Assembly (NCBI GenBank): GCA_016184225.1
Contig: JACPDA010000004.1
Location: forward strand, 6,800 to 70,799
Direction of reading: 5' to 3'
Origin: Candidatus Daviesbacteria bacterium
GTDB lineage: Bacteria > Patescibacteriota > Microgenomatia > Daviesbacterales > UBA10151
DNA length: 64,000 nucleotides
Both the position numbers and the translations under genes were made by a program. How positions within the stretch are numbered: the first letter of the stretch is position 1; the number at the start of each line of letters is the position of its first letter. The notes under the pieces are model-generated. The model did not search any database, was not told the DNA's origin, and saw nothing but the letters and a program-made list of their open reading frames with translations. Of this stretch, positions 273 to 17,817 are shown piece by piece.

Positions 273-834
273 TACCACTCTCGATCATATCAAACAGTTT
301 ATCTGGTATATAATCCTGTAAATCACCATACCTGTATACCTGCGGCGTATAACCAGCAGGATTTATTTTGTACGACAGATGGGCTTGAATCACTTTTCTT
401 GTGCCTGGCCTAATACCCAAATCTCCTACAGGAGCATTCAACACATCCTCAAATCTAGTCCACCCCAAGTCTGCAACTTCTTGCGACTCTGAACCGATTA
501 TTACATCTACATCCGGGGAAACTTCTAGCACTGATGCATGAAGAATCACTCCAGATCTTAATTCACATAAACAAAGTCTCGTAACTGCTCTAGGATCATA
601 CCTGAAGTTTTTAATCTGGATTTCCTCTCTTGTCAGTCTCTCAAAAGTCTGTGCATACTCTTCTCCGGGTTTAACCGTCTCCATGGGCAGAGTTAACATT
701 CCAGCTACTTTATGTGTAGATCTTTTACTCGTCAACTCTCTTAGCGTCAAAAATCCCCGACCAGGATCCTCAGGAACAACAATTAATGCACCCACACCTG
801 CGACTCTTCCCTCTAGCCCTTCTGTTCTGATCAT
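151..834 (-). CDS. hypothetical protein with a weak dUTPase/dCTP-deaminase-like segment (LRSGVILHASVLEV...DVDVIIG); the C-terminus overlaps the convergent kinase gene
   Basis: Long ORF whose start overlaps the idi stop (ATGA-type overlap). I recognise no firm motif, so the real start and the C-terminal extent are uncertain. Confidence 0.35.
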   Translation of the reverse strand: MIRTEGLEGRVAGVGALIVVPEDPGRGFLTLRELTSKRSTHKVAGMLTLPMETVKPGEEYAQTFERLTREEIQIKNFRYDPRAVTRLCLCELRSGVILHASVLEVSPDVDVIIGSESQEVADLGWTRFEDVLNAPVGDLGIRPGTRKVIQAHLSYKINPAGYTPQVYRYGDLQDYIPDKLFDMIESGISLEEALFRLKLASTPAARSLLLAHSQSLQVHPLDHAEAK

Positions 835-1370
835 GCTTTAAAGAACCTTTCTTTTTTTAACAGTTCAACTGATTTGATTGCCCAAGGAGAATAATTTTTA
901 GGATGAGCTTCAATATCTTTCAAAAATTCCTGCATATCCACCCATTTGTAGCCATAACCTACCGCCAGGTTTAACTTAAACTGGCCGTTATACTCCCCGA
1001 TCAAAAGATAGCAATGCTCGTTCTCGCAAAGCCCATCGTATTTAGCAAAGTAATTAAATGCTCCCAGATTTTTTAATGTAATATTATCTATATCATACTC
1101 TACTTTAAGGCATCGTTGTGTTGCTTCTTCTAAAGTTTCATCAGTATTATTTCCCCTGTGCAGCGGATGAGTAGCTCCTGTCACATCCCAAATATTATCA
1201 AAAACCTGGTGTTTCCTTTTTTGCAGTAAAACTTGTCCTTTGTAGTTGTAAAGCAGCACAGCAATGGCCAGATGCCGCCTACCTTTTCCGGTATGACCTA
1301 CTTTTTTGGGAATATACTTACCACTAAATACACCTGCCCCATTGCAGGCTAAAATTAACTGATCGTCCAT
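831..1370 (-). CDS. idi: isopentenyl-diphosphate delta-isomerase type 1 (Nudix-fold IDI)
   Basis: HLAIAVLLYN...LLQKRKHQVFDNIWDVTGATHP and a Cys/Glu-containing core resemble type-1 IPP isomerase. The size of about 180 aa also fits. Confidence 0.6.
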   Translation of the reverse strand: MDDQLILACNGAGVFSGKYIPKKVGHTGKGRRHLAIAVLLYNYKGQVLLQKRKHQVFDNIWDVTGATHPLHRGNNTDETLEEATQRCLKVEYDIDNITLKNLGAFNYFAKYDGLCENEHCYLLIGEYNGQFKLNLAVGYGYKWVDMQEFLKDIEAHPKNYSPWAIKSVELLKKERFFKA

Positions 1371-1423
1371 ATCTACCTGTATATAATTAGTCGGGAGAAA
1401 CCCTAAAACCCCACGAAGTTTTT

Positions 1424-1673
1424 AAGAAATAACCTTAAGCTCTCTTCCAACTTTAGCAAAAGCCGCAATACCAAGATCCAAATCTTTTTTATCGTGGGCT
1501 GCAGAAGGTATCACACGAACTCTATCTTTTCCTTTGGCAACCATGGGGAAAACAATCGGTGTGGCAAAAACATCCAGCTCAAAAAGTTTAGCGCTAAACT
1601 CCCTGGCTAAATTCTCATCACCTAACACCACCGGAGTAATTGGAGTCTGAGAATGACCAGTATCAAATCCCAA
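1424..1673 (-). pseudogene. truncated duplicate of the kbl 3' end (about 250 bp, roughly 90 percent identical to 5384-5633)
   Basis: The ORF 1422..1673 translates to [14 protein letters not shown]...[14 protein letters not shown], nearly identical to the last 83 aa of the Kbl-like protein at 5382..6581. The nucleotide alignment is visible by eye. No upstream part of the gene is present here. Confidence 0.8.
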
Positions 1674-1782
1674 TTTCTGAAACTAAGGATGTCGGAAAAG
1701 TGAAAGTAAAGCTTAAAGCATTAGACTTCGTCAAGGACATCATTGTAAATATTCCCGGAGAAGGTGCTAGGCTCTCACAAAA

Positions 1783-2067
1783 TCACCTTTTTGAAGTTTC
1801 CGAGTGAAGACAAGTAGAAGCTGGTTCCTTGCATTTAGAACAGGTTTTCTCGCTCTCACCTGTTCTTGCAGGACCACTAAAATAAATTGTGCCTACGGGT
1901 AATTTTTCTTTTTTGAGTAATTCTTTAATACTTTCAACGACCAACACTCTTCCAGAAGTCTGCGGCCTGCAAGGAGCGCAAGAACCGGCAAAAGGACAAC
2001 CTTCACACCCGCTTCTTGCCCGCATAGCCTTAACAGAACCTCTTTTCAGTATTTCAACTGCCGCCAT
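1783..2067 (-). CDS. small Cys-rich Fe-S-cluster-domain protein (RnfB N-terminal-like; motif CEGCPFAGSCAPC followed by SGRVLVVESIKELL)
   Basis: A C-x2-C-x5-C-x2-C motif, followed by a segment resembling the GGEAVMLKIAELL region of RnfB N-termini. It is transcribed divergently from pflB. Confidence 0.45.
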   Translation of the reverse strand: MAAVEILKRGSVKAMRARSGCEGCPFAGSCAPCRPQTSGRVLVVESIKELLKKEKLPVGTIYFSGPARTGESEKTCSKCKEPASTCLHSETSKR

Positions 2068-2135
2068 AAACTGATATTATAACTCATCTCCAAAAATAGT
2101 GCCCCTATTTGAGCTAAAGATGATATACTCAGCAA

Positions 2136-4361
2136 ATGAACAAAGTTTTCCAAAAGGGTGAATGGGAAAAGGTAATCGATGTCAGAGATTTTTTATACCA
2201 CAACTTAATCCCCTACAGCGGAGGCGCAGAATTCTTAAAAGGCCCCTCAGAAAAAACCAAAAAGCTTTGGGATATTTGTAAAAATCTGCTTAAAAAAGAA
2301 GCTGCAGCAGGCGGAGTTTTAGATATTGACACCAAAACAATTGCAACTGCTGTCAGCCACAAACCAGGCTATATTAAAAAAGATCTTGAGCTTATTGTTG
2401 GTTTACAGACAAATGAGCCATTAAAAAGAGCTATAAAGCCCTACGGAGGCATCCAGGTGGTTGAGCAAGCCTGTGAGGACTACGGCAAAAAACTTGACCC
2501 AAAGGTAAAAAAGCTTTTTACTACATACCTAAAAAGCCACAATCAGGCTATATTTGATGCTTACACAGAAGAAATCAGAAAATACCGCTCAAGCGGCGTA
2601 ATTACAGGCTTGCCCGATAACTACGCCAGGGGCAGAATTATCGGTGACTACCGCCGGGTAACTTTATACGGCATAGACCGTTTAATTGAAGAAAAGAAAA
2701 AAGACCATGCCGGAAAAACAGGTTCCATGACAGATACGGAAATCAGGGAGCGCGAAGAAATTGGCGAAGAAATTCATGCCCTGGATTTAATTAAGGAGAT
2801 GGCTGCCTCATATGGCTTTGATTTAAGCAAACCGGCTCAAAATGCCAAGGAAGCAATCCAGTGGACTTATTTTGCCTACCTGGCAGCCTTAAAGGAGCAA
2901 GACGGCGCAGCTATCAGTCTAGGCTCTGTCAGCGGGTTTTTTGATATTTATATTGAAAAAGATATTGCCGAAGGAAACTTAACGCAGGAACAGGCCCAAG
3001 AGCTTATTGACCAGTTTATTATTAAACTGCGCCTGGTCAGACAGCTACGTATGAAAGAATATGACCAAATCTATGCCGGCGACCCAACCTGGTTGACTGA
3101 AAGCTTAGCCGGGATGTTTTTGGACGGCCGCCATAAGGTTACCAAAACCTCTTACAGGTTTCTGCAGTCGCTGTATAACCTTGGCGCCGCTCCCGAACCA
3201 AACATCACAGTGCTTTGGTCTGAAAAACTGTCGCAGAAGTTTAAGGAATTTTGCGCCAAGGTCTCTATAGATACATCTTCAATCCAATATGAAAATGACG
3301 ACTTAATGAGGGAAATTGCCAATTTTGATGATTACGGCATTTCCTGCTGCGTATCCCAACAAAAAATGGGATCGCAAATGCAGTATTTTGGCGCCCGGTC
3401 CAACCTCCCTAAAGTTTTGCTTTTGGCTCTAAACCAGGGCAAAGATGAAAATGCAGCTGTAGTTTTGGTACCGGGGATCAGTCCCCAACCAGAAAGAGCT
3501 TTGGATTTTAACAAGGTCATGGCAGAGTACAAAAAAACTCTTAGCTATGTAGTAAAAGTGTATGTAAATGCCATGAATATTATTCACTACATGCATGACA
3601 AGTATTATTTCGAACGGGTACAAATGGCTTTGCTGGACACTGACTTAGACAGATTAATGGCCTTTGGTATTGCCGGCTTATCAGTTGTGGCAGATTCCCT
3701 GTCTGCCATTAAATACGCCAAAGTAACACCTATCCGGGATGAAGATGGAATCACGAAAGACTTTGTTATAGAGGGGGATTTTCCAAAATACGGCAATGAC
3801 GATGACAGAGTTGATAACATTGCAAAAGAATTGGTTGACAGTTTCAATGAAGAACTAAAAAAACACCAAATCTACCGGGGCGCCAAGCCAACTTTGTCTG
3901 TACTGACAATTACCTCAAACGTGATGTACGGCAAAAAAACCGGCGCCACTCCTGATGGCAGAGCCAGCGGCGAACCTTTTGCCCCTGGTGCTAACCCCAT
4001 GCATGGCCGCGACAGCCGGGGCGCCATTGCCTCCTTAAATTCCGTAGCCAAAATTGATTATAAAAGTGCCAGGGATGGTGTTTCCAATACCTTTTCCATT
4101 GTTCCCCGGGCATTAGGCGCTACTAAAGAGGAACAAACCGATAACCTAGTGGCTTTAATTGATGGTTATTTTCATAAAAAGGCTCAACATCTAAATGTTA
4201 ATGTCCTAAACCGGGAAACCTTGCTTCGGGCTATGGCCCATCCTGAAGAATACCCCCAACTCACCATCAGAGTCTCAGGATATGCTGTTAATTTTGTTAA
4301 ACTCTCCCGCGAACACCAACAGGAAGTTCTGGCCAGAACCTTCTTTGAGTCAATGAAGTGA
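2136..4361 (+). CDS. pflB: pyruvate formate-lyase (formate C-acetyltransferase), glycyl-radical enzyme
   Basis: Collinear with E. coli PflB along the whole length. The glycyl radical motif RVSGYAVNF lies near the C-terminus and the active-site CCVS-type cysteines (ISCCVSQ) are present. Confidence 0.95.
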
Positions 4362-4365
4362 CGTT

Positions 4366-4445
4366 TTACGTCATCCTGAACTTGATTCAGGATCCATACA
4401 ATTATTTATATAGCTCCCCCGATTAAATCGGGGGATGACAAAGAA
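4366..4445 (+). promoter_or_regulatory. two stable stem-loops in the pflB-pflA intercistronic spacer
   Basis: gtcatcctgaacttgattcaggatcc and tcccccgattaaatcgggggat are both perfect hairpins. No T-tract follows them, so this is more likely an mRNA processing or stability element than a terminator. Confidence 0.4.
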
Positions 4446-4450
4446 AAATT

Positions 4451-5176
4451 ATGCTGCAAGTTCACTCCATTGAAACATTCGGCACCCACGAGGGACCGGG
4501 CATCAGGCTGGTTATCTTCATGCAGGGGTGCAATTTCCGCTGCCTGTATTGTCATAACCCCGATACCCGTTCTTTAAAAGGCGGCACAAAAATGAGTTCC
4601 GAAGAAATCATTGAGCTTTTAAAAAAGCAAAAGCCTTATTTTAAAGATACAGGGGGTCTGACTGTTTCCGGCGGAGAATCCCTGCTGCAAAGGAAAGCTT
4701 TACTTGATCTTTTTACCAAAGCCAAAAAGCTAGGTTTCAATACTACCCTGGACACCAATGGTTCTATTCTTGATGATGATACCAAAAAACTTCTAGAAGT
4801 AACTGATTTGGTATTACTGGATGTTAAACACATCGACCCGGTCTGGCATCAGACAGTTACCAGCGCTTCTAATGAACCAACGCTTAGGTTTGCCAAATAT
4901 CTGAAAGAAATCAATAAGTCAATGTGGCTACGCTATGTTTTAGTCCCCGGCTACACTAACCAAAAAGAATTCTTAGAAAAATGGGGTGCCCATTTTAAGG
5001 ATTATAAAAACATTGACAGGGTAGAAATTCTACCCTTCCATACCTATGGATTTTACAAATACAAAGAACTAGGCATTGAAAACCCGCTGTCAGATTGTCC
5101 TGTTCCTACTGAAAAAGAAATTCAGGAAGCTCTGACTATTTTCGAGAAATACTTCAAATCAGTATATGTCAGATAA
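4451..5176 (+). CDS. pflA: pyruvate formate-lyase activating enzyme (radical SAM)
   Basis: CNFRCLYCHNPDT radical-SAM cluster motif. The 241-aa size and the position immediately after pflB match. Confidence 0.93.
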   Translation: MLQVHSIETFGTHEGPGIRLVIFMQGCNFRCLYCHNPDTRSLKGGTKMSSEEIIELLKKQKPYFKDTGGLTVSGGESLLQRKALLDLFTKAKKLGFNTTLDTNGSILDDDTKKLLEVTDLVLLDVKHIDPVWHQTVTSASNEPTLRFAKYLKEINKSMWLRYVLVPGYTNQKEFLEKWGAHFKDYKNIDRVEILPFHTYGFYKYKELGIENPLSDCPVPTEKEIQEALTIFEKYFKSVYVR

Positions 5177-5381
5177 ACCCCACGGCCCTAACCCGTATGA
5201 TACAATATAGTCATGGAAAATATGGATAATGGCCCAGTTGCCATAATTAAAAAGATTGCTAATCCATTCCGTAGGAATGGTGAAAGATCGAAAATCCCTT
5301 CCACCCCCGATCTTTCAGACCATCAGCCGACTCTACAAGAGCCGGGGATTTTAGGTGACTTTCTCAAAAGCGAATATCCAC

Positions 5382-6581
5382 CTAAGAAATAACCTTAAGC
5401 TCTCTTCCAACTTTAGCAAAAGCTGCAATGCCAAGATCCAAATCTTTTTTATCATGGGCTGCAGAGGGTATCACACGAACTCTATCTTTTCCCTTGGGAA
5501 CCATGGGGAAAACAATCGGTGTGGCAAAAACATCCAATTCAAAAAGCTTGGCGCTAAACTGCCTGGCTAAATTCTCATCAGGTAGCATCACCGGAGTAAT
5601 TGGTGTCTGGGAGTGGCCGGTATCAAATCCTAACTTTTTAAACTCTTCCCGTAGGTAATTAGTATTATCCCACAGCTTCTTAACCAGCTCATCTGATTCT
5701 TCCAGAATTTTAACTCCTTCCAAAACTGCGGCTGTATCCGCAATTGTTAAAGCATTTGAAAATAAAAATTGCCTGGCTTTTTGCTTGTAAAAATTAATCA
5801 AGGTGGCTTTCCCGGTGATAAAGCCACCCATCACAGAAAAAGCTTTGGACAGTGTCCCCATTTCAATATCCACCTGCCCATGAAGATTAAAATGATCAAC
5901 AATACCCCGGCCGCCTTTACCCAATACCCCTTCCCCATGTGCATCATCAACCATAGTTAAAACCCCATACTTTTTAGCCAGTTCCACAATTTGCGGCAGC
6001 GGCGCTAAATCTCCATCCATAGAAAAAACACCATCTGTCACAATTAAAATTACAGGCTCCTCTCCATTCTCTTTTGGGGTCTTTTGCAACTCCACCGCCT
6101 CTTTAAGCCGCTCTTCCAGCTCACCCATATCCAAATGTTTGTAGATAAACTTATTTTTAACCTGGGACAGCCGGATCGCATCAATAATAGAAGCATGGTT
6201 TAGCTCATCGGAGATCACAATATCTTCTTTGCCAATAATGGTAGCAATGGCCGCGCAATTGGCCATGTAGCCGCCGGTTAAGACAATAGCCGCCTCAGCT
6301 CCCTTAAACCGGGCTAGAGCTTCTTCCAGTTGAACATGCAAGGTATGAGTACCTGCCAGAGTCCGGTAACCTGTGCCGATACCGTATTTATCCACTGCCT
6401 CTTTGACAGCTTCTTTTAGTCTATCATCTACAGCCAACCCTAAATAATGGCTGGAGCAAAAATTCAGTTTTTTCTTCCCATTAATGGTAAGGTACGCCCC
6501 TTCCCCTGATTCAATCACATAAGGAATTTTGCCACTTTTCACTGCTTCTGCAAGATTGCGATAGAAGTCCGTAGTATTCAT
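5382..6581 (-). CDS. kbl: 2-amino-3-ketobutyrate CoA ligase (glycine C-acetyltransferase), PLP-dependent family
   Basis: The fold-type I aminotransferase class II signature (AONS/Kbl family) is present. It sits in an operon with a threonine dehydrogenase. Confidence 0.85.
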
Positions 6582-7600
6582 GGCTCCAGAATTATTTTAC
6601 CGCATTGCCTGCTTTTCATCACCGCCATGGCTTTATCAAAATCTTTTAAGCGAAATTTATGGGTAATGATTTTAGATAAATCAACTTTACCTGATTTCAA
6701 AAGGTCTGTGGTCTGGTGCCAAGTTTTCCAAAGCTGCCTGCCAAACACCGAACGGATAATCAGCTCTTTATTTATTAAGTATTTGCCCCAATCGATAGAA
6801 ATATTCTCCTTAGGTATACCAAAGGCTATAATCGTACCGGCGATCCTGACTGCATCAAAAGCTACCTCTATCCCTAACCTATTACCGCTCATCTCCAAAA
6901 CGGTGTCAAAACTGTTATGTTCTTTAATATCCAACACATCCACTACCCTATCAAACCAGCCGGTTTTCATGGCTAATTTCCGTCTGTAAGGCTCATCATT
7001 TACCCCCACCACTTCTTTGGCGCCGGTGGCCCGGGCCACTCCTCCCGCACAAAGTCCGGTTGGCCCCAGCCCCATAATTAAGACTTTTTTACCTTTGACT
7101 TTGGCTTTACCCACTGCATTGACAGCATTACCCAAAGGTTCCTGAACACTCATCGCCTCAATCGAGATGGCAGGATCATTCTTCCAGGTAGTTCGCAAAG
7201 GAATGGTGGCATACTCGGCATAAGCCCCATCCCGACCGATGCCAAAAAGCTGGATATTTTCGCAGACATGGTAATTTTTAATCTTGCATTGGAAACAGTT
7301 TAGGCAGAAGATGTGAGTTTCAGAAGAAACCAAATCCCCGACTTTTATATCGGTTTTTTGTTTTGTATTAACTTTTAAAACTTTTCCTACCATCTCGTGA
7401 CCGATGATTGTTGGTGGTTTAATATGAGCGGCTGCCCAGGGAATCCAGTCATAAATGCCGATGTCCGTGCCGCAAATTGAAGCGTAAATTACTTTGACCA
7501 AAACCTCATCTTTACCTGGTTTTGGAATGGGGACTTTTTTTATTACAACACCGGGAGCAGCACTAACTTTAACAACCGCCAGCATTAAATTTTTCTGCAT
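6578..7600 (-). CDS. tdh: L-threonine 3-dehydrogenase (zinc-dependent MDR family)
   Basis: Zn-ADH motifs are present (CGTD...GHE, structural-zinc Cys cluster). It overlaps the kbl start, the classic tdh-kbl pair. Confidence 0.85.
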
Positions 7601-7732
7601 AAATAATCTTGGGCTATAAGATTACCATGATAGCATTGAAAAGCTCGTTACACAAGAGGATAGGCTGTTATTCCTGCAGCTGCCCAGGGGGTATATCTTT
7701 TGGGAAAACCGCTAAAATAATTTGGCTATCAC

Positions 7733-8500
7733 TCATACACGGCCTTCCAGAACAGAAATGACCAGATATACCACTACTACTCCCAAAAGGAGCATTATAG
7801 TTTCCCAAAAGGCCACTTTCTGATTATCCCGGTTATGTATTTCCGGGATCAGATTTGCTAAAGCAATATAGATAAAAAAGCCGGAGGTAAGAGCCAAAAT
7901 AATAGGCAAGAATTTCTCAATACTGCCTTGATACAAATAAATCAAGATAGCTCCTGCTAAAGCTGAAAGAGCGCTAAAAAGATTGATCAAAAGCACCTTT
8001 TTTCTTTCTAAGCCCTTGTTAAGCATCAGCCCAAAGTCCCCTATCTCTTGTGGGATCTCATGAGCTGCCACTGCCAAAGAAGTCACAATCCCTAAAGGAA
8101 TGCTGATTAAAAAAGTAGCAGCAATGGCCATGCCATCGGTAAAATTATGCAGCGTATCTCCGATCACCACCAAAGGGATGATTGATTTTTTTTCTTCTTT
8201 AAGGACACTGGTGTGATCGTGATGATGGTGGATAAACCGCTCAAGTAAGAAAAAGATCAGGATGCCTAAAAGAATCCAAAGCGGCAAATTTATATCCAGT
8301 CCTCCTTCTTCCATATATCCCGTAGCCTCCGGCAGCAGATCAAAAAAGGCAGCAGAAAGCAGCGCTCCGGCTGCAAATGAAGATAAATAATGGGAAATAG
8401 AAAGAGCAAACTTTTGTTTAACTAGCAGCAGTATTCCGCCAATTAAAGACACCACACTGCCTATTAAAGTAAAGATGATGATGTATGCTAAAATCCCCAT
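7733..8500 (-). CDS. zupT: ZIP family zinc/iron transporter
   Basis: Multiple TM segments, an HHHHDH loop, and the HNFTDGMAIA and HEIPQEIGDF metal-binding helices typical of ZupT/ZIP. Confidence 0.8.
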   Translation of the reverse strand: MGILAYIIIFTLIGSVVSLIGGILLLVKQKFALSISHYLSSFAAGALLSAAFFDLLPEATGYMEEGGLDINLPLWILLGILIFFLLERFIHHHHDHTSVLKEEKKSIIPLVVIGDTLHNFTDGMAIAATFLISIPLGIVTSLAVAAHEIPQEIGDFGLMLNKGLERKKVLLINLFSALSALAGAILIYLYQGSIEKFLPIILALTSGFFIYIALANLIPEIHNRDNQKVAFWETIMLLLGVVVVYLVISVLEGRV

Positions 8501-8502
8501 TT

Positions 8503-9249
8503 TTAAAGCAGCGGATCTATGACGGCCTGGAAGGCAGAATATGGTTGGGCGCCGACTATAATCGTACCGGTAATAGTGCCTGAGGGATCTGATTTTCCCA
8601 CAAAGAAACTCGGTGTGCCGGAAACTCCGGCCGCACTGCCATCAGCCACATCTTTTTTAATCTCTTCCGCATACTTTTCCGAATCAGCACAAGATTTCAA
8701 ATTTGCCTTGTTTAACCCCAAATCAGCAGCGAATTGGTAGACCTCGTCTTTTGTTAACCCGTTGCCGTTAGATTTGGTTTTGGTAAATATGCTGTTGTGG
8801 AATTTAAAGTAAGCGCTATCTCCCCCTTGTTCCTTAGCACAGTTGGCAGCCCCAGCTTCAAAGGTGGCCATGGGATCATGGAAAGGCAGAGGATAATCGC
8901 GAAAAACCATCTTCACTTTACCCGTATCTATGTAATCTTTTTTTAAAGAAGGGTAGACTTGGTCGAAGTGTCTTTTACAAAAAGGGCATTCATAATCAGA
9001 AAATTCTATCAAGGTTACTTTGGCATCTTTACTGCCCAAAACCGGATCATCATCTAAAGACACTTTGACTGAAGTTGGTTGCTGGGGAGCTTGTGGGACT
9101 TGCGGAGAAGCTACCGGGGCAGTGATTTTCGTACCGGCTGTCTTAGGGGCAATTTTAATAATTCCCCCGTGAATTAAGATAGCGATTGAAATAAGTACTG
9201 ATCCTAACAGAATAGACATCGGGATCGTTAAAAAGGAGTTGCGTTCCAT
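8503..9249 (-). CDS. membrane-anchored DsbA-like thiol:disulfide oxidoreductase
   Basis: N-terminal TM helix, Pro/Gln-rich linker, a CPFC active site and a DsbA-like fold region. Confidence 0.75.
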   Translation of the reverse strand: MERNSFLTIPMSILLGSVLISIAILIHGGIIKIAPKTAGTKITAPVASPQVPQAPQQPTSVKVSLDDDPVLGSKDAKVTLIEFSDYECPFCKRHFDQVYPSLKKDYIDTGKVKMVFRDYPLPFHDPMATFEAGAANCAKEQGGDSAYFKFHNSIFTKTKSNGNGLTKDEVYQFAADLGLNKANLKSCADSEKYAEEIKKDVADGSAAGVSGTPSFFVGKSDPSGTITGTIIVGAQPYSAFQAVIDPLL

Positions 9250-17761: not shown

Positions 17762-17817
17762 CTATACCCTATACCCTATACCCTATACCCTATACCCTAT
17801 ACCCTATACCCTATCTT
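17762..17817. repeat. tandem heptamer array (CCTATAC) x8
   Basis: Perfect 8-copy array in the spacer between fic and the PaaX-like gene. Confidence 0.9.

Follow-up and report, generated by a model that had tools for sequence, protein, structure and literature searches.

We analyzed the region around the pyruvate formate-lyase (PFL) genes pflB and pflA in a 64-kb stretch of a Candidatus Daviesbacteria genome (GenBank assembly GCA_016184225.1, contig JACPDA010000004.1; hereafter, the window), in which the two genes lie between direct repeats of the 3' end of kbl. Comparison with related loci suggests that a block carrying pflB and pflA (together pflBA) came from a closely related, Daviesbacteria-like donor, was circularized or passed through an equivalent intermediate, and entered the recipient chromosome 198 bp past the end of the resident kbl, with 10 bp being duplicated; we give this reading a probability of roughly two in three. 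The kbl repeat around pflBA would be a by-product of the event, an imported passenger fragment having landed by chance beside its resident homologue. A preliminary description of the region had instead proposed that an element integrated into the 3' end of kbl while carrying a replacement 3' end, leaving the shorter copy as the displaced original. Positions given below are those of the window, and L-numbers denote the related loci and assemblies used for comparison.

Insertion Point and Empty Site

The insertion is placed by L099 (JGI contig Ga0209541_10011008), which matches both flanks of the block. On one flank, the identity is 78% for dsbA and 89% for zip; on the other, it is 82% for idi179, 83% for the isopentenyl-phosphate-kinase-like gene (IPK), 84% for the sigma factor, 85% for yjbQ and 78% for uppS, and nudix227 is also among the genes downstream of idi179 that match. 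Between zip and idi179, L099 holds at the zip end a 4.3-kb stretch of unrelated genes, which encode an AMP-binding enzyme and a hexapeptide transferase. Next come a scar of 22 nt from the kbl 3' end, TAG stop included, a region homologous to window 5195–5400 that includes a small open reading frame (ORF), a single 10-mer and the upstream region of idi179. In the window, this continuous stretch is split, with its left part standing after the intact kbl (5400 down to 5185) and its right part before idi179 (1415 down to 1371).

At the split, the window carries an exact 10-bp direct repeat, AAACCCCACG, which is found exactly twice in the 64 kb, once at each end of the block, against an expectation of 0.09; among random pairs of 41-nt segments, 0.2% share a word of at least 10 nt. 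L099 carries a single related 10-mer, CATGGGATTT, at the homologous point. Joining 1250–1415 to 5185–5420 with one 10-mer reconstructs the empty site (joint sequence CCCTAAAACCCCACGGCCCTAACCC), and this reconstruction aligns to L099 through the joint (75% identity, 384 columns) and scores 365, whereas the two contiguous sequences actually present score 216 and 242. The small-ORF segment shows 70% nucleotide identity over 207 nt to L099 6170–6370, directly upstream of idi179 in that locus, and the ORF itself 54% amino acid identity to L099 6178–6384. L099 also shares the TAG stop of the intact kbl and ~200 nt of the sequence downstream of it.

From these alignments, the true insertion point appears to be 198 bp downstream of the kbl stop, marked by the 10-bp duplication, and the intact kbl appears to be native and the kbl fragment imported. 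Integration into the 3' end of kbl is not supported, since the intact gene keeps its own 3' end, its TAG and its downstream sequence, all of which are present in L099. A 10-bp duplication left by a single event looks the same whether it stems from a crossover within microhomology or from a target-site duplication. The adjacency of kbl and idi without pflBA, which the preliminary description had suggested looking for in relatives, is supported only by the L099 scar with its order of kbl tail, small ORF and idi179; no relative was found to have an intact kbl directly upstream of idi179.

The kbl scar of L099 (6166–6187, GAGCTTAAGGTTATTTCTTAGG, including the TAG stop) lies beside the genes for the AMP-binding enzyme and the hexapeptide transferase, and its position next to unrelated genes suggests that tdh-kbl was independently replaced at the same slot in the L099 lineage. 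The 59-aa product of the small ORF has no Pfam match, and the ORF may be a real small gene or just a conserved terminator or spacer; orf80 of L109, located downstream of kbl, has no detectable homology to it. On the minus strand of the reconstructed empty site (1395–1415 joined to 5185–5200), a G-quadruplex-type motif, GGGTTAGGGCCGTGGGGTTTTAGGG, exactly spans the insertion point. The window has just two other loci of this type and the motif is absent from L099; the empty site may have been a fragile one.

The Two kbl Copies

A repeat search of the window returned one family for this region, a direct repeat of 262 nt (1423–1684 and 5383–5644) that is ~91% identical, ungapped and spaced by 3960. 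The duplication of ~250 bp at ~90% identity that had been described is therefore real, with coordinates slightly short at the inner end. In pairwise alignment, both copies begin at the T of the kbl stop codon, TAA in copy A (kbl') and TAG in copy B (the intact gene). The similarity stops sharply at 1684 and 5644, and there is none past the stop codon. Copy A is a dead fragment, as originally noted, and consists of the last 86–87 codons of a 5'-truncated gene.

The differences between the copies carry a clear signal of selection. Over 86 codons, we counted 18 synonymous and 6 nonsynonymous differences, 16 of the 24 falling on third codon positions; the synonymous divergence (dS) is 0.39, the nonsynonymous divergence (dN) 0.031 and dN/dS 0.08, with a binomial P value of 1e-7 for the synonymous excess. 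Because the differences are mostly synonymous, copies A and B derive from two functional kbl alleles. Of the four fragment-specific residues, G, E and A are common states among 120 functional kbl homologues, and V ranks second in frequency at its position. Together with the synonymous excess, these residue states indicate that nearly all of the divergence of kbl' built up while it still belonged to a working gene and that its truncation is recent.

Copies A and B are each other's nearest relatives (91%), and the best outside relative, L097, is 86–87% identical to either. The substitutions specific to copy A are exemplified by the stretch CCGGTGGTGTTAGGTGATGAG, and the FPMVAKGK variant of kbl' is common to the kbl alleles of L093 and L096, both of which abut pflA.

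Content and Order of the Inserted Block

The block spans 1416–5184, or 3,769 bp when one 10-mer is counted, and has the order AAGTTT, kbl', MVD', orf94, pflB, pflA, in which MVD' is a 3' fragment of a diphosphomevalonate-decarboxylase-like gene (MVD) (Table 1). The preliminary description had placed only a small Fe-S protein gene, pflB and pflA between the kbl copies; this list lacks both MVD' and a backbone segment of ~200 nt with the small ORF. In blastn comparisons, the kbl homology ends at 1682–1687 and the MVD homology begins between 1689 (L084) and 1698 (L096), leaving a gap of ~4 nt. The MVD proteins of L097, L096 and L084 match the window solely at 1673–1792 on the plus strand, with 62–68% identity and E values of 1e-8 to 1e-11, and tblastn found no intact MVD, mevalonate kinase, mevalonate operon or suf gene within the 64 kb.

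Beyond MVD', the block follows the arrangement of L096. Window 1698–2127 aligns to L096 14161–14625, which covers the 3' end of MVD, an orf94-like gene and the upstream region of pflB. The product of orf94 is 49% identical to that of L096 14223–14519, which sits there between pflB and MVD in the same orientation. Its label as a small Fe-S protein was not confirmed, the Pfam search yielding just a subthreshold WhiB-like match (E = 0.09). The nearest relatives of PflB are 87% identical and come from metagenome-assembled genomes (MAGs) of Daviesbacteria and Patescibacteria, and PflA shows 75–88% amino acid identity to its counterparts in L083, L084, L087, L093 and L096.

When the block ends are joined without the 10-mer, pflA reads ...GTC AGA TAA and is followed by GTTT and then by the kbl stop on the opposite strand. 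The convergent spacing of pflA and kbl is 4 nt in the joined ends, 4 nt in L096 and 3 nt in L093; the corresponding circle joint would read GTCAGATAAGTTTTTAAG, or the version of it that includes the 10-mer. Because kbl' and MVD' are fused head to head, the block can be read as a circular permutation of the L096 gene order; more precisely, it appears to be a unit-length permutation of the donor-type order kbl, pflA, pflB, orf94, MVD, with the MVD'–kbl' joint as the point of closure. A fragment that is an imported piece fused in this way is not what integration at an attachment (att) site, with the fragment as displaced original, would predict.

We found no machinery that could account for the insertion. 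All ORFs of the block are assigned (kbl', MVD', orf94, pflB, pflA) and none of them is a recombinase by Pfam, so the earlier statement that no integrase lies inside stands; the genes flanking the block have nonrecombinase Pfam domains or are backbone genes common to the relatives. The block has no transposase domain, its ends (AAGTTTTTAAG... and ...TATGTCAGAT) are not inverted repeats, and the repeat search pairs no ends in inverted orientation. No transposase, insertion sequence (IS) copy or IntI-like gene is present in the block or among the genes annotated over ~8 kb on its left and ~17 kb on its right, in a screen in which attC-like elements were not searched for. No tRNA gene is near the block, the sole one of the window being at 54.7 kb, and the region has no Rfam matches.

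Table 1. Features at the insertion, in window coordinates
Feature	Position	Strand	Description
idi179	831–1370	-	Resident backbone gene immediately left of the insertion; NUDIX family (Pfam); 82% amino acid identity to L099 6439–6966
Left 10-bp repeat AAACCCCACG	1406–1415	+	Target-site duplication or microhomology core
AAGTTT	1416–1421		Putative donor spacer between the kbl' stop and the block end
kbl' (copy A)	1422–1684	-	Probably imported; 3' fragment of another kbl allele, covering the last 86–87 of 399 codons plus TAA; 91% identity to 5383–5644
Head-to-head junction	1685–1688		Novel; 5'-truncated kbl' meets 5'-truncated MVD'; putative circle-closure or duplication junction
MVD'	~1689–1807	+	Probably imported 3' fragment, about the last 36–40 codons, of a diphosphomevalonate-decarboxylase-like gene; tblastn, and blastn to L096 and L084
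orf94	1783–2067	-	Small Cys-rich ORF (CxxC motifs); travels with pflB
pflB	2136–4361	+	Formate C-acetyltransferase; Pfam PFL-like 1e-195, Gly_radical 1e-39
pflA	4451–5176	+	PFL activating enzyme; Pfam Radical_SAM, Fer4_12; stop codon (5174–5176) overlaps the right 10-mer
Right 10-bp repeat AAACCCCACG	5175–5184	+	Overlaps the pflA stop codon
Resident backbone segment	5195–5392	+	Small ORF of 59 aa at 5213–5392, in convergent orientation to kbl, whose stop it overlaps by 11 nt
kbl (resident, intact)	5382–6581	-	399 codons; Pfam Aminotran_1_2; last 262 nt are copy B (5383–5644)
tdh (resident)	6578–7600	-	Same orientation as kbl and overlapping it; Pfam ADH_N, ADH_zinc_N; 94% amino acid identity to L097

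Gene Orders in Related Genomes

Loci related to the window are found in Microgenomates MAGs labeled Levybacteria, Daviesbacteria or "Patescibacteria group." A species-level genome scan with kbl identified 80 loci, most of them with the tdh-kbl pair. In about 60 of the 80, tdh is beside kbl, and in none of them is pflBA within 10 kb of kbl. That scan alone suggested that kbl and pflBA never occur together in relatives, a notion overturned by the contexts of the closer PflB and kbl matches.

Listed in kbl-sense order, these closer relatives fall into a few arrangements. L083 and L084 (PflB 87% identical in amino acids) have dsbA, zip and an idi-like gene, followed by pflA and pflB on the other strand, and lack tdh-kbl. 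L097 and L109 (kbl 90 and 87%, tdh 94 and 87%, respectively) have dsbA, zip, an idi-like gene, tdh and kbl, then MVD and a full mevalonate operon on the other strand and uppS, and lack pflBA. The donor-type order is found in L096 (kbl 85%, PflB 79%), where an idi-like gene, tdh and kbl are followed by pflA and pflB on the other strand, the orf94-like gene and MVD on the other strand. In L093 (kbl 83%, PflB 79%), kbl directly adjoins pflA, and a HicAB pair and then pflB come next. In the upstream part of that locus (GCA_016183245.1, L093 1–902), tdh is present as two ORFs (1–625 and 576–902), which makes it either a frameshifted pseudogene or a sequencing error.

The stretch from zip/idi to the isoprenoid genes is a variable slot that holds varying sets of tdh-kbl, pflBA, suf genes and toxin-antitoxin pairs. 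The window-type backbone (1–1370; L089 1–8071) consists of idi179, nudix227, the isopentenyl-phosphate-kinase-like gene (AA_kinase), the sigma factor, yjbQ and uppS. In L109, L056, L105 and L106, a complete mevalonate operon occupies the place of the idi179-to-uppS genes. As the backbones of the window and of L099 have no mevalonate operon at the slot, whereas those four loci have it, MVD' is probably not native.

The identities of the backbone genes (7600–9249 and relatives) are mosaic. The zip gene is 88–90% identical to those of L083, L099 and L109 but 70% to that of L097; dsbA and tdh are 90 and 94% identical, respectively, to their L097 counterparts. This mosaic ancestry suggests frequent homologous exchange between lineages around the slot.

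The composition of pflBA was expected, on the earlier view, to differ from that of its surroundings. Compared with the 49 genes of the window, pflB and pflA have z scores of 1.0 and 0.4 for GC content at third codon positions (GC3) and of 0.3 and 1.1 for codon-usage distance; both genes are unremarkable in composition and codon usage, as a close donor would lead one to expect. The closest PflB relatives, L083, L084 and L087, carry pflBA in the same general chromosomal neighborhood. The missing composition shift and the location in these relatives point to a donor that is a close relative rather than to a classical foreign genomic island. Of the proposal that pflBA is a horizontally acquired island module, the discrete inserted segment is retained and the foreign island is not. 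The tests that had been put forward to refute that proposal, composition and the arrangement in relatives, do not separate the competing models.

Proposed Sequence of Events

The recipient, a Microgenomates genome of the Daviesbacteria type within the candidate phyla radiation (CPR), would have had the order dsbA, zip, tdh, kbl, small ORF, idi179 and nudix227 before the insertion. The donor would have carried kbl, then pflA and pflB on the opposite strand, orf94, and MVD on the opposite strand, and would have been close to the recipient, the 3' end of its kbl being ~9% diverged and the divergence nearly all synonymous. A donor segment whose ends lay 262 nt upstream of the kbl stop and ~107 nt upstream of the MVD stop may have closed on itself, as a circle formed by illegitimate end joining, as the unit of a tandem duplication or through a template switch, and so have created the head-to-head MVD'–kbl' junction.

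The closed unit would then have been opened, or crossed over, in the 4-nt spacer between the convergent kbl and pflA and been joined to the recipient chromosome in the spacer between the small ORF and idi179. The 10-bp direct duplication AAACCCCACG could have arisen through a crossover within microhomology or through the fill-in of a staggered break. Direct sequence comparison supports that a block was inserted, where its ends lie and that kbl' and MVD' are imported; the circular intermediate, the recombination chemistry and the direction of the transfer are what we infer.

Several points weigh against this scheme. The donor order is drawn from distant relatives: L096 reaches 76–77% identity over the 3' end of kbl and 79% in PflB, the donor-type gene order in L096 and L093 comes at only 67–79% identity and no near-identical donor was found. 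Among the 120 kbl homologues, no allele is nearer to fragment A than the resident copy B. No relative was found with an intact kbl, the small ORF and idi179 in order, and the scar in L099 is the sole support for such an arrangement; L099 itself might, in principle, have arisen from an ancestor resembling the window through loss of the DNA between the 10-mers. A circle with 262 nt of 91% homology might also be expected to recombine in kbl rather than at a 10-bp site. Finally, the pflA-side junction (5175–5184) has no independent support, exact-protein look-ups of kbl, pflA and the 59-aa ORF having matched nothing.

Alternative Explanations

The integration proposed in the preliminary description can be cast in a Campbell form, in which a circle with the kbl 3' end, the small ORF, pflA, pflB, orf94 and MVD' entered the chromosome by site-specific or homologous recombination within the 3'-terminal part of the resident kbl, and 1422–1684 is the displaced original. 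The outcome would have the same gross architecture, with direct kbl repeats flanking pflBA; the MVD'–kbl' junction is also consistent with such a circle, and 262 nt at 91% identity would be a plausible RecA substrate. We nevertheless consider this course unlikely. It predicts that the small-ORF region is donor DNA and that resident sequence follows kbl', contrary to L099, in which the small ORF is contiguous with the upstream region of idi179, and it leaves unexplained a 10-bp duplication placed exactly at the breakpoints of the L099 homology. The donor would need the small ORF between kbl and pflA, where L093 and L096 have 3–4 nt, and the recipient would need to have lost the small ORF by a precise deletion. 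When the differences between copies A and B are polarized with L097 as the outgroup, A-like and B-like sites are interleaved with no single switch point, and there is no integrase.

The block could also have a source within the same genome, of which 64 kb are visible. It would then have been copied or translocated from a second locus with kbl, pflA, pflB, orf94 and MVD, or a deletion would have fused two loci, and pflBA would not have been horizontally acquired in this lineage. The neighborhood of pflBA in L083, L084 and L087 and the unshifted composition and codon usage fit this account. It is made improbable by the divergence of the kbl copies, as a dS of 0.39 would require two functional paralogues to have been long maintained in a genome of ~0.8–1 Mb, and the window holds no second kbl, pflB or MVD. 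A simple deletion yields neither the 10-bp duplication nor the permuted order, and the slot on the L099 backbone is without these genes. Related scenarios fell on similar grounds. The insertion of tdh-kbl beside a native pflBA was rejected in view of the kbl scar on the L099 backbone, and neither a tandem duplication in situ nor a deletion between two resident loci gives the adjacency of kbl' and idi179 together with the 10-bp duplication.

A far-reaching reading, to which we assign little weight, sees the zip/idi-isoprenoid slot of Daviesbacteria-type CPR genomes as a dedicated exchange site. Gene blocks that contain promoters (tdh-kbl, pflBA, suf, toxin-antitoxin) would be excised as circles and reinserted with a fixed 10-bp duplication by a trans-acting recombinase or transposase encoded elsewhere in the genome, and the targeting might involve the G-quadruplex-like motif. 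If true, the site would amount to an integron-like cassette system without attC or IntI.

We think it very doubtful that homology-facilitated illegitimate recombination or stepwise replacement shaped the locus, with linear donor DNA anchored in tdh, kbl or zip, its far end joined illegitimately inside the resident kbl and later shuffling. The mosaic zip and tdh identities do reveal frequent recombination between lineages, and L099 has another replacement with a gene-end scar. Such a course predicts that kbl abuts pflA and that the small ORF has disappeared. The opposite is observed, and neither the permuted order nor the 10-bp duplication is explained.

Independent assemblies bear on the integrity of the contig. 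The Logan assemblies L001 and L002 are 100% identical to window 1547–4769 and cover the kbl'–MVD' junction, and L089–L092 cover idi179 and the left flank up to window 1452–1463, so that two of the three novel junctions are reproduced. All independent assemblies break inside the repeat, as expected if the repeat is genuine. An assembly artefact or chimeric contig, a concern raised early on since the source is a MAG and repeats are typical points of misjoining, is therefore scarcely credible, given that the 24–25 differences between the copies follow a codon-aware pattern, that assemblies from several runs reproduce two junctions at 100% identity and that a misassembly would not give both a 10-bp duplication and continuity with L099.

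Relation to Known Systems

The locus resembles a genomic island at an att site, where an element integrates at the end of a tRNA or other gene, supplies that gene with a new 3' part and leaves attL and attR, in being a discrete block with a metabolic module and direct repeats that include a gene's 3' end. It differs in that an integrase is lacking, as is an att site in a tRNA or within a gene, and in that the intact kbl still ends in its original sequence. The repeat that marks the junctions is here the 10-mer 198 bp downstream, and the long repeat is an imported passenger joined to another truncated gene. Identical core repeats at both junctions, a mark of integrase-mediated islands, are present in the form of the exact 10-bp repeat; a microhomology crossover or a target-site duplication also gives such repeats.

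Homology-facilitated and double illegitimate recombination have been described in naturally transformable bacteria. With illegitimate, microhomology-mediated integration, the block shares the lack of an insert-encoded recombinase, very short identities at the junctions, truncated donor genes carried along and a donor that is a close relative: the fused, truncated kbl' and MVD' come without machinery, and the empty site of L099 is continuous across the insertion point. The difference is that the insert here is a unit-length circular permutation flanked by a clean 10-bp duplication. The unit-length permutation points to a circular or tandem intermediate, not a simple linear patch.

Circle-forming mobile DNA, such as the circles of copy-out-paste-in IS elements, IS26-type translocatable units and integron cassettes, involves, as proposed for the block, a unit-length circular intermediate, one insertion point and a short direct target duplication. 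The block has no terminal inverted repeats, however, and its ends lie inside ordinary donor genes, not at element boundaries. Unlike integron gene cassettes, it holds divergent and convergent genes and gene fragments. The head-to-tail joints of truncated genes at tandem-duplication junctions are close to the MVD'–kbl' joint, which is as a duplicated kbl'-to-MVD' segment would create; here, the unit is single and stands on a different backbone, without MVD and with its own kbl, and a transfer step would therefore also be needed.

On the sequence evidence, the scar fits an ordinary, integrase-free illegitimate insertion of a relative's DNA that is unusually readable, a known kind of event in a well-resolved example. 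In the CPR/Patescibacteria, which have tiny genomes and a patchy metabolism, few gene transfers can be reconstructed base by base. The scar suggests that a fermentation module, PFL with its activase, can move between close relatives without an element-encoded integrase, probably via a circular or tandem intermediate and into a slot remodeled independently by several lineages; our literature search found nothing specific to PFL in Daviesbacteria and yielded no direct precedent drawn on here. The locus also calls for caution, as a direct repeat of a gene's 3' end around cargo mimics an att-site island while the fragment here is probably itself imported cargo. Automated island callers and manual readers would misjudge both the direction and the insertion point.

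Other Observations

Many MAGs with tdh-kbl loci of the Microgenomates type (among L003–L082) carry the title "uncultured Gammaproteobacteria bacterium" (binchicken co-assemblies), and the title of one reads Methylomirabilota; such titles on Microgenomates-type loci suggest that the taxonomy labels of these records are unreliable. Elsewhere in the window, a perfect tandem array of the 7-nt unit CTATACC (GGTATAG on the minus strand) extends over 7.6 copies at 17762–17814, in the intergenic space between a Fic-domain gene and the next ORF.

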